6,510 nucleotides of DNA from NCBI RefSeq assembly GCF_003334335.1, contig NZ_QOWQ01000075.1. One strand, given 5' to 3'. Under the pieces are notes generated by a model. The model was not told where the DNA came from and did no database searches. It worked only from the letters and a program-made list of their open reading frames with translations. Both the position numbers and the translations under genes were made by a program. Of this stretch, positions 3,380 to 6,300 are shown piece by piece. The DNA comes from Escherichia coli (GTDB taxonomy: Bacteria; Pseudomonadota; Gammaproteobacteria; Enterobacterales; Enterobacteriaceae). Within the stretch, counting starts at the first letter, position 1. Each line of letters starts with the position of its first letter.

Positions 3380-6300
3380 ATGGGTAAAGGAAGCAGTAAG
3401 GGGCATACCCCGCGCGAAGCGAAGGACAACCTGAAGTCCACGCAGCTGCTGAGTGTGATCGATGCCATCAGCGAAGGGCCGGTTGAAGGTCCGGTGGATG
3501 GATTAAAAAGCGTGCTGCTGAACAGTACGCCGGTGCTGGACAGTGAGGGGAATACCAATATATCCGGCGTCACGGTGGTGTTCCGGGCCGGTGAGCAGGA
3601 GCAGACACCGCCGGAGGGATTTGAATCCTCCGGCTCCGAGACGGTGCTGGGTACGGAAGTGAAGTACGACACGCCGATTACCCGGACCATCACGTCGGCA
3701 AACATCGACCGTCTGCGCTTTACCTTCGGTGTGCAGGCACTGGTGGAAACCACCTCAAAGGGGGACCGGAATCCGTCGGAAGTCCGCCTGCTGGTTCAGA
3801 TACAGCGTAATGGTGGCTGGGTGACGGAAAAAGACATCACCATTAAAGGCAAAACCACCTCACAGTATCTAGCATCGGTGGTGGTGGGTAACCTGCCGCC
3901 GCGCCCGTTCAATATCCGGATGCGCAGGATGACGCCGGACAGCACCACAGACCAGCTGCAGAACAAAACGCTCTGGTCGTCATACACCGAAATCATCGAT
4001 GTGAAACAGTGCTACCCGAACACGGCACTGGTCGGCGTACAGGTGGATTCGGAGCAGTTCGGCAGCCAGCAGGTGAGCCGTAATTATCATCTGCGCGGGC
4101 GTATTCTGCAGGTGCCGTCGAACTATAACCCGCAGACTCGGCAATACAGCGGTATCTGGGACGGAACGTTTAAGCCAGCATACAGCAATAACATGGCCTG
4201 GTGTCTGTGGGATATGCTGACCCATCCACGCTACGGCATGGGGAAACGTCTTGGTGCGGCGGATGTGGACAAATGGGCGCTGTATGTCATCGGCCAGTAC
4301 TGCGACCAGTCAGTGCCGGATGGCTTTGGTGGCACGGAGCCGCGCATCACCTGTAACGCTTACCTGACCACACAGCGTAAGGCGTGGGATGTGCTCAGTG
4401 ATTTCTGTTCGGCGATGCGCTGTATGCCGGTATGGAACGGGCAGACGCTGACGTTCGTGCAGGACCGACCGTCGGATAAGGTGTGGACCTATAACCGCAG
4501 TAATGTGGTGATGCCGGATGATGGCGCGCCGTTCCGCTACAGCTTCAGCGCCCTGAAGGACCGCCATAATGCCGTTGAGGTGAACTGGATTGACCCGGAT
4601 AACGGCTGGGAGACGGCGACAGAGCTTGTTGAAGATACGCAGGCCATTGCCCGTTACGGTCGTAACGTCACGAAGATGGATGCCTTTGGCTGTACCAGCC
4701 GGGGGCAGGCACACCGCGCCGGGCTGTGGCTGATTAAAACGGAGCTGCTGGAAACGCAGACCGTGGACTTCAGCGTGGGTGCAGAAGGGCTTCGCCATGT
4801 ACCGGGCGATGTCATTGAAATCTGTGATGATGACTATGCCGGTATCAGCATCGGCGGGCGCGTGCTGGCGGTGAACAGCCAGACGCGGACACTGACGCTC
4901 GACCGTGAAATCACGCTGCCATCCTCCGGCACCACGCTGATAAGCCTGGTTGACGGACAGGGGAATCCGGTCAGCGTGGAGGTCCAGTCCGTCACCGACG
5001 GCGTGAAGGTGAAAGTGAGCCGTGTTCCTGACGGCGTTGCCGAATACAGCGTGTGGGGGCTGAAGCTGCCGACGCTGCGCCAGCGCCTGTTCCGCTGCGT
5101 GAGTATCCGTGAGAACGATGGCGGCACGTATGCCATCACCGCCGTGCAGCATGTACCGGAAAAAGAAGCCATCGTGGATAACGGGGCGCACTTTGACGGC
5201 GACCAGAGCGGCACGGTGAATGGTGTCACGCCGCCAGCGGTGCAGCACCTGACTGCCGAAGTCACCGCAGACAGCGGGGAGTATCAGGTACTGGCCCGCT
5301 GGGACACGCCGAAGGTGGTGAAGGGCGTGAGCTTCCTGCTTCGCCTGACCGTGACAGCGGACGATGGCAGTGAGCGGCTGGTCAGCACGGCCCGGACGAC
5401 GGAAACCACATACCGCTTCAGGCAGCTGGCGCTGGGGCGTTACATGTTGACGGTCCGGGCGGTAAATGCGTGGGGACAGCTGGGCGATCCGGCGTCGGTA
5501 TCGTTCCGGATTGCCGCACCGGCAGCGCCGTCGCGGATTGAGCTGACGCCGGGCTATTTTCAGATAACCGCCACGCCGCATCTTGCCGTTTATGACCCGA
5601 CGGTACAGTTTGAGTTCTGGTTTTCGGAAAAGCGGATTACCGATATCAGGAAGGTTGAAACCACAGCGCGCTATCTTGGCACGGGGCTGTACTGGATAGC
5701 CGCCAGTATCAATATCAAACCGGGCCATGATTATTATTTTTACGTTCGCAGTGTGAACACCGTTGGCAAATCGGCATTCGTGGAGGCTGTTGGTCAGCCG
5801 AGTGATGATGCATCCGGTTATCTGGATTTTTTCAAAGGCGAGATAGGGAAAACCCATCTGGCTCAGGAGCTGTGGACGCAGATTGATAACGGTCAGCTTG
5901 CGCCTGACCTGGCTGAAATCAGGACGTCCATTAAGGATGTCAGCAATGAAATCACGCAGACCGTCAATAAGAAACTGGAAGACCAGAGTGCGGCAATTCA
6001 GCAGATACAGAAGGTTCAGGTTGATACAAATAATAATCTGAACAGCATGTGGGCTGTGAAGCTGCAACAGATGAAGGACGGACGCCTTTATATTGCGGGT
6101 ATCGGTGCCGGTATTGAGAATACGCCAGCAGGAATGCAGAGTCAGGTGCTGCTGGCGGCAGACAGGATTGCGATGATTAATCCTGCGAATGGCAACACAA
6201 AGCCGATGTTTGTTGGTCAGGGCGATCAGATATTCATGAACGACGTGTTCCTGAAACGCCTGACGGCTCCCACCATTACCAGCGGCGGTAATCCTCCGGC

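Follow-up and report, generated by a model that had tools for sequence, protein, structure and literature searches.

The window, i.e. the whole stretch of 6,510 nt of Escherichia coli DNA that was analysed, carries distal tail genes of a lambda-like prophage, namely the end of H followed by M, L, K, I, a small inserted ORF and J. Gene J, which encodes the tip attachment protein or central tail fibre, was recognised by translation and by alignment to lambda gpJ. It occupies 3380–6510 on the plus strand and runs off the end of the window, with 1043 codons visible. The missing 3' end was taken from a 100%-identical prophage of E. coli GZ04-0086, in which the window-identical prophage adjoins an ompW remnant. 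The full J has 1159 codons and ends 349 nt past the window. The gpJ at the identical locus of GZ04-0086 is WP_000515674.1 (RefSeq name 'phage attachment tail tip protein J'), and its gene agrees with the window J without a difference over the first 1043 codons.

According to the window ORFs, the alignment to lambda and the RefSeq annotation of the identical prophage, J has the same operon position as in lambda, after H, M, L, K and I and before lom and stf. All six Pfam families of gpJ were matched in the expected order, with E values of 2e-30 to 2e-42. In residues of the full J these were FNIII-A_GpJ (86–207), Phage-tail_3 (330–496), Ig_J (610–714), Ig_J_second (716–818), Phage_Tail_Tip (872–1000) and Ig_GpJ_C (1029–1159). 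J also matched solved gpJ chains by sequence (phmmer against PDB), and in a homology search with the full J protein only near-identical proteins of 1159 residues were found among the matches listed.

An antisense ORF of 585 codons extends across J at 4310–6067, and its lambda equivalent has 564 codons. The ORF gave no match in PHROG and was treated as a by-product of codon composition.

Divergence from lambda along gene J

The window J was aligned with MAFFT to J of the real lambda record (NC_001416). The preliminary description of this DNA had J following lambda closely up to about 5830, and the alignment agreed with this, protein identity being about 98% over residues 1–820. The proximal part of J (3380–5845, plus strand), consisting of the hub domains and two FNIII/Ig domains, showed 93–96% nucleotide identity and, by segment, 91–98% protein identity to lambda. 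At the 5' junction (5804–5845, plus strand) lies the conserved start of the helical shaft, with an 18-nt exact match to lambda at 5822–5839, right after which identity drops. The GYLxFF motif was kept in all shaft alleles of the E. coli phage panel described below. The segment 5804–5845 is likely to be the upstream crossover zone.

The divergence that had been described for 5840–6060 proved to be real, in that identity to lambda was not uniform across this segment, but the true block is wider (5846–6201, plus strand), extending about 140 nt further in the 3' direction. It was delimited by the ML high-divergence interval, in which mismatch to lambda was 43% compared with 8% outside, and it is also set apart by pS values, identity to other phages and a triplet test (see below). 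The block, which is referred to here as the long-A allele, comprises J residues 823–941 and corresponds to lambda J residues 823–913. Nucleotide identity to lambda was 57–64% across about 5836–6215. Protein identity was 43% over residues 809–889 and 62% over 890–945, and was 93% over 946–991 and 57% over 992–1043. The window J has 28 extra residues relative to lambda; in the MAFFT alignment about 28 codons without a lambda counterpart (residues ~836–866, in a pattern of 21 + 7 gaps) lie at 5885–5977 on the plus strand and make up a shaft extension. The segment 5840–6060 itself corresponds to the helical first 60% of the block reaching about 6201.

The return to lambda-like sequence that had been reported after the divergent stretch was found at 6202–6352 (plus strand), with 88–91% nucleotide identity. 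Within this conserved island, at 6227–6321, runs of 29, 20 and 20 nt are identical to lambda. The island is a crossover zone between the shaft module and the module of the distal fibre and receptor-binding domain (RBD). A second divergence had been noted near the end of the window, and it starts at about 6353, with 58% nucleotide identity to lambda from there. The segment 6353–6510 (plus strand, lambda residue ~966 onward) is the start of the variable, receptor-specificity part of the distal fibre, and is of the 640R1/Stx2a_JNE130578 type (98–99% nucleotide identity to 640R1 and JNE130578).

Lambda gpJ (NP_040600; 8IYK, 8K35, 8XCG/8XCI/8XCJ) therefore resembles the window J in its gene position (H-M-L-K-I-J-lom-stf), its six Pfam domains and the island, but differs in two parts. 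The shaft and prism-top block of the window has 43–62% protein identity to that of lambda and is 28 residues longer, and its distal fibre and RBD belong to a different type (41–57% identity).

The segment 5840–6060 had also been described as visibly AT-rich. Its GC content is indeed low, at 0.475 where the J part of the window has 0.575, and the string noted as AT-rich, gttgatacaaataataatctgaac, lies at 6020–6043 as reported, with the quoted peptide also in place, but the drop is not confined to the block. GC starts to fall at about 5550, where the DNA still resembles lambda at 92–95% (GC 0.498), and lambda's own allele of the segment has a GC of 0.507, with other alleles at 0.48–0.53. In 5840–6060 second-codon-position GC was 0.30, while GC3 was 0.59 and not below that of the flank. 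Since the deficit lies at second codon positions, and thus in the amino acid composition, the AT-richness reflects the K/N/Q/I/T/E-rich helical protein sequence and not a foreign base composition. Low GC as a mark of foreign origin was ruled out by its upstream onset, by the lambda allele sharing it and by the unlowered GC3.

Allele classes and assortment of the parts of J

Three sequence classes of the block were found in sequenced phages. The long-A class, which is the 21/1717 type of the window, was present in 65 phage records with at least 90% identity, among them 21, cdtI, VT1-Sakai, Stx2-1717 and Ayreon. The long-B class (97 records, about 68–74% identity to the window type) is carried mostly by Stx1a and Stx2a phages. 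The short lambda type was present in 85 records with at least 90% identity, among them lambda, 434, HK630 and Stx2c phages, and Gifsy-1 carries it at 80%. The spacing from the anchor GYLDFF to the anchor YxAGIG is 91 residues in the window and 63 in the lambda type, and an extra-long class has 164. Shaft lengths quantised in heptads were considered and rejected, the steps being 28 (4 x 7) and then 73, which is divisible by neither 7 nor 11.

Of 5426 complete E. coli genomes, 3586 carried the block type of the window, at 7095 places, and 2647 carried the lambda type, at 4267 places. These counts imply that no fewer than 807 genomes contain both, which gives co-resident prophages abundant substrates for exchange. 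The window block type is the commonest version in E. coli genomes and the finding is ordinary; lambda has a minority form, and a difference from lambda is therefore nothing unusual.

A panel of 14 J genes was assembled from phage records, and across this panel the four parts of J assorted independently. Stx2-1717 has 75% nucleotide identity to the window in the hub, 95–100% in the shaft block and 60% in the RBD and distal fibre, and the corresponding values for Stx2a_JNE130578 are 75%, 64–71% and 96–98%. Lambda and 434 have 96% identity in the hub and 59% in the shaft block, with a 28-codon indel, and carry RBDs of other types. Ayreon is of the same type as the window through residue 991, shaft block included, and then continues with a 434-type RBD. 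In Stx2c_PV98, a hub of 75% identity is combined with a lambda-type shaft block, an FNIII part that is also lambda-like, and a 434-type RBD.

Identity of the block to Stx2-1717, 21, 640R1 and Ayreon was 95–100%. Among the closest known relatives, phages 21, vB_EcoS-640R1, cdtI and Stx2-1717 have a J of 1159–1160 residues and, like the window, the long-A block at 95–100% nucleotide identity. The J of 640R1 matches that of the window along the whole gene (94–99%), whereas phages 21 and 1717 differ from the window in having another RBD type (60%), and 1717 differs further in its hub lineage (75%).

The same RBD type was found with more than one shaft type in three cases. The window itself combines its RBD type with long-A, and Stx2a_JNE130578 combines that type with long-B; the 434 type is paired with the short shaft in 434 and with long-A in Ayreon, and the 21 type is paired with long-A in 21 and with long-B in Stx1_14040. 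With a panel of 14 genes, there may still be a weak linkage between shaft type and RBD type.

The helical shaft and the question of host range

[quoted passage not shown] The AHS is a three-helix bundle that clasps the FNIII-2 units together from below (PMC11101478). After binding to LamB, a twist climbs the prism and the AHS turns over through about 180 degrees; residues 809–840 shorten, residues 841–861 turn into beta-strands atop the prism, and this refolding lets the FNIII strings part and the tail tip open (PMC11101478).

The shaft of the window J starts around residue 809, where Ig_J_second has its C-terminal edge, and ends around residue 889, inside Phage_Tail_Tip; this matches the position of the AHS between FNIII-2 and the beta-prism. 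Pfam leaves residues 819–871, between these two families, unmodelled. Residues 809–835 and 866–889 align to lambda, and residues 836–865, which have no lambda counterpart, were unaligned to every solved gpJ in the phmmer search against PDB, all solved gpJ being of the short form.

The block had been called coiled-coil-like, and this is only loosely true, for its helical amphipathicity but not for a strict heptad register. An amphipathic helix was detected at residues 844–889 (5909–6046, plus strand), with a hydrophobic periodicity of about 3.6 residues, which is hendecad-like, and these residues are readable as four 11-residue units. Their helical amphipathic power at periods of 3.4–3.8 (peak 3.6) was reached by 24 of 5000 shuffles, and in the same test that of the lambda AHS was reached by 37 of 5000. 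A canonical heptad coiled coil was rejected for residues 844–889, the best register being reached by 1626 of 5000 shuffles and the power peaking at 3.6 rather than 3.5.

An AF2 monomer model of residues 701–1159 had a mean pLDDT of 49.7 and stayed below 50 through the fibre (802–1025). In this model helices were placed, at low confidence (pLDDT <50), at residues 811–825, 829–836, 841–860 and 869–890, in agreement with the amphipathic helix. The extra 28 residues sit near the point where the two helical segments of the shaft join. By analogy with the lambda structure, the block would form the lower two-thirds of a trimeric alpha-helical shaft together with the top of the beta-prism fibre. If fully helical, the long allele would add up to about 4 nm (28 x 0.15 nm) to the shaft. 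This is an upper bound, since the long shaft may be split into two helices by G838 and P842.

It had been proposed that exchange of this segment could affect host range, a suggestion that was not upheld by the position of the block. The specificity region of J, lambda residues 960–1132 (PMC6646904), lies in the C-terminal stretch of about 170 residues to which host-range mutations map. The block (lambda 823–913) falls upstream of and outside this region, which is entered only by 6353–6510 of the window, and RBD types occur with differing shafts. A direct role in host range is unsupported because the block belongs to the refolding part of the protein and not to the receptor-binding domain.

It is unlikely that the block is nevertheless a host-range determinant in itself, for instance as a secondary region of contact with receptor or LPS, and was exchanged for that reason. 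Its location in the distal fibre and its polymorphism, with three sequence classes and three length classes, would be consistent with such a role, and fibre length could in principle matter on thick O-antigen or capsule. However, the lambda counterpart of the block consists of a buried bundle of three helices and the top of the prism. It precedes the specificity region by about 100 residues, and no receptor contact has been reported for it (PMC11101478, PMC6646904). Moreover, each of the three RBD types discussed above was found with two different shaft types. For those PhiR and mEp phages that have the window J, a literature search gave no usable assignment of a receptor.

Exchange of the shaft block by recombination

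Synonymous differences separated the block from the rest of the gene. In comparison with lambda, pS was 0.79 inside the block and 0.15–0.20 upstream of it, and the opposite pattern was obtained with Stx2-1717 (0.115 inside the block, 0.42–0.79 outside). Local acceleration of protein evolution cannot explain these reversed patterns, which indicate recombination. The saturation of synonymous sites marks the block as an allele of ancient divergence and not as a stretch of rapid local evolution.

The triplet test with lambda and Stx2-1717 as parents placed the window on the lambda side at 467 of 497 informative sites in 3380–5499, on the Stx2-1717 side at 114 of 116 in 5846–6201, and again on the lambda side at 23 of 24 in 6262–6351. 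With 1717 and JNE130578 as parents, the JNE130578 side was found at 40 of 41 sites in 6352–6509 and at 118 of 119 in 6510–6859, which makes 158 of 160 sites over the gene from 6352 onward. The maximum descent was reached by none of 5000 permutations.

The changes in identity were abrupt. The match to Stx2-1717 stops at 6262, the match to JNE130578 starts at 6350 and that to Ayreon fades past 6387, so that the crossovers of different lineages (6262, 6350 and ~6387) lie in the island or just beyond it. Exact matches to lambda of 18–29 nt flank the block. A bounded block with an excess of synonymous differences, the same block beside unrelated flanks, and conserved flanks, the three marks of a recombinant module, were all found.

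The J of the window is thus a patchwork of a lambda-type hub and FNIII part, a shaft block of the 21/Stx2-1717 type, a lambda-type island, and a distal fibre and RBD of the 640R1/Stx2a_JNE130578 type. These pieces meet at short conserved sequences that are able to host homologous crossovers. The exchange of a module by recombination, which had been suggested from the pattern of divergence, is strongly supported by the abrupt breakpoints, by the synonymous saturation restricted to the block and by the triplet tests.

These results leave very little room for the alternative that the block diverged in place, through rapid diversifying selection on an exposed fibre segment and without exchange. 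A high dN in the block (0.44 against lambda) would be expected under such selection, and fast-evolving regions are known within J (PMC6646904), but the confinement of synonymous saturation to the block, the abruptness of its boundaries, the permutation result and the presence of the block in Stx2-1717 at 95–100% nucleotide identity behind a hub of only 75% all argue against it. Still less credible is an artefact, either an assembly chimera of co-resident prophages or a comparison with an incorrect lambda sequence: the median of three J-like copies per E. coli genome can confuse assemblers, but the real lambda record was used for comparison, all 6510 nt of the window recur at 100% identity in prophages of many independent complete genomes (16 records match at 99% or more), and the block type was found at the 7095 genomic places given above as well as in phage isolates, 21, cdtI and Ayreon among them.

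Taken as a whole, recombination between J lineages and the match to the lambda AHS make it highly probable that 5846–6201 (residues 823–941) is an exchangeable cassette in the J of a lambda-like prophage, consisting of shaft and prism top, with receptor choice in a separate module. By analogy with lambda, this cassette would be the mechanical link from receptor binding to tip opening. It most likely sets fibre length and trigger mechanics, while receptor choice would lie in the separately exchanged C-terminal module. More speculatively, shaft and prism top may be exchanged as one unit owing to their mutual packing in the open state.

A tentative extension, which we regard as possible but rather doubtful, is that the short (63), long (91) and extra-long (164) shafts are a selected mechanical polymorphism, tuning the reach of the fibre or its refolding force or threshold, and are exchanged independently of receptor specificity, for example to suit the thickness of O-antigen or capsule. 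If true, this would also account for the unexplained indel peaks of Maddamsetti et al. 2018, who found such peaks outside the specificity region ('one indel nested within another') and left their meaning unstated (PMC6646904). The 21 + 7 gap pattern of the window may be this nested indel. In a literature search, no paper was found that ties the nested indel to the helical shaft, and nothing usable was found on the shaft polymorphism.

The study of Maddamsetti et al. 2018 (PMC6646904) also reported that the phylogeny of the specificity region differs from that of the rest of J and that recombination is frequent. The same phenomenon is seen here, and the divergence at about 6353 of the window coincides with the start of their specificity region. 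They split J in two, whereas in the present analysis the shaft block is a separate cassette, placed on the structure of 2024. The mosaicism of J by recombination is hence already documented and the protein is already annotated in RefSeq, and what is added here is a small point of interpretation. Given that the window J allele is very common, it is of little importance beyond annotation.

Within these bounds, the divergent block can now be placed on the lambda tail-tip structure as a shaft/trigger cassette and not as the receptor-binding part, which is a caution that not every mosaic in the distal fibre amounts to a change of host range. Natural long and short shafts that are paired with the same RBD provide ready material for testing the part played by shaft length in the triggering of DNA ejection.

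A predicted lipoprotein gene between I and J

In the window, genes I and J are separated by an insertion of about 430 bp (2903-3340) with a low GC content (0.24-0.46), which is present neither in lambda nor in phage vB_EcoS-640R1 (640R1), whose J matches that of the window along the whole gene. The insertion carries an ORF on the plus strand (2975-3313), predicted to encode a lipoprotein of 112 residues (MNKTILFCTIIALTGC) with the lipobox LTGC. The product is labelled hypothetical in RefSeq (WP_001332187.1) and matched PHROG 914 (unknown function; E 7e-33), while searches of Pfam, NCBIfam and PADLOC gave no match. 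No DNA match to the insertion was found among 50,697 phage records. The ORF was detected in 337 of the 5426 complete E. coli genomes searched, and homologues with 50-60% identity occur in Klebsiella, Enterobacter, Kluyvera and Jejubacter. The insertion looks like a moron; as to the role of the lipoprotein, superinfection exclusion, for example, is only a guess.

The I stop codon and the lipoprotein ORF are followed by a terminator-like hairpin directly 5' of the J start (3337-3357; GAGCCGCC-TTT-GGGCGGCTT, then a T-run). Terminators are annotated at the same I-J intergenic position in the records of phages 21 and Ayreon.

Mosaic patches in genes I and H

A second mosaic patch was observed in gene I (2401-2700), where nucleotide identity to lambda was 57-74%, with a 30-nt indel. 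Identity of this patch to 640R1 was 89-94% up to approximately position 2600 and about 60-67% thereafter. In the C-terminal part of the tape-measure gene H, a third patch (351-500) showed identity to lambda reduced to 62-68% at the nucleotide level, compared with 83-96% in its flanks.

Reading frames and shaft variants of J

An antisense ORF of 585 codons (4310-6067, minus strand) overlaps J, and lambda has an equivalent one of 564 codons. A PHROG search with the window ORF gave no match, and it is most likely a by-product of the codon composition of J.

In VT1-Sakai, an Stx1 prophage, J (AP000400, 552-4024) likewise has a divergent shaft block of the window type. This gene is annotated as two truncated pieces, with mutation given as the cause, and the tail fibre of VT1-Sakai is probably defective.

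An extra-long variant of the alpha-helical shaft was found in protein P0152, where the GYLxxF and YVAGIG anchors are 164 residues apart, compared with 91 in the window J and 63 in lambda. The P0152 shaft contains a repeated motif, SEITxT...QQ/QV, and these repeats suggest that shafts can also lengthen by internal duplication.

Among solved structures, the best match to the C-terminal 459 residues of the window J was PDB 9wca/9wcb ("A8 gpJ 713"), which, unlike wild-type lambda, combines a short lambda-type shaft with a phage-21-like receptor-binding domain. A shaft and receptor-binding domain paired otherwise than in wild-type lambda therefore fold, and the structure of such a combination has been solved.
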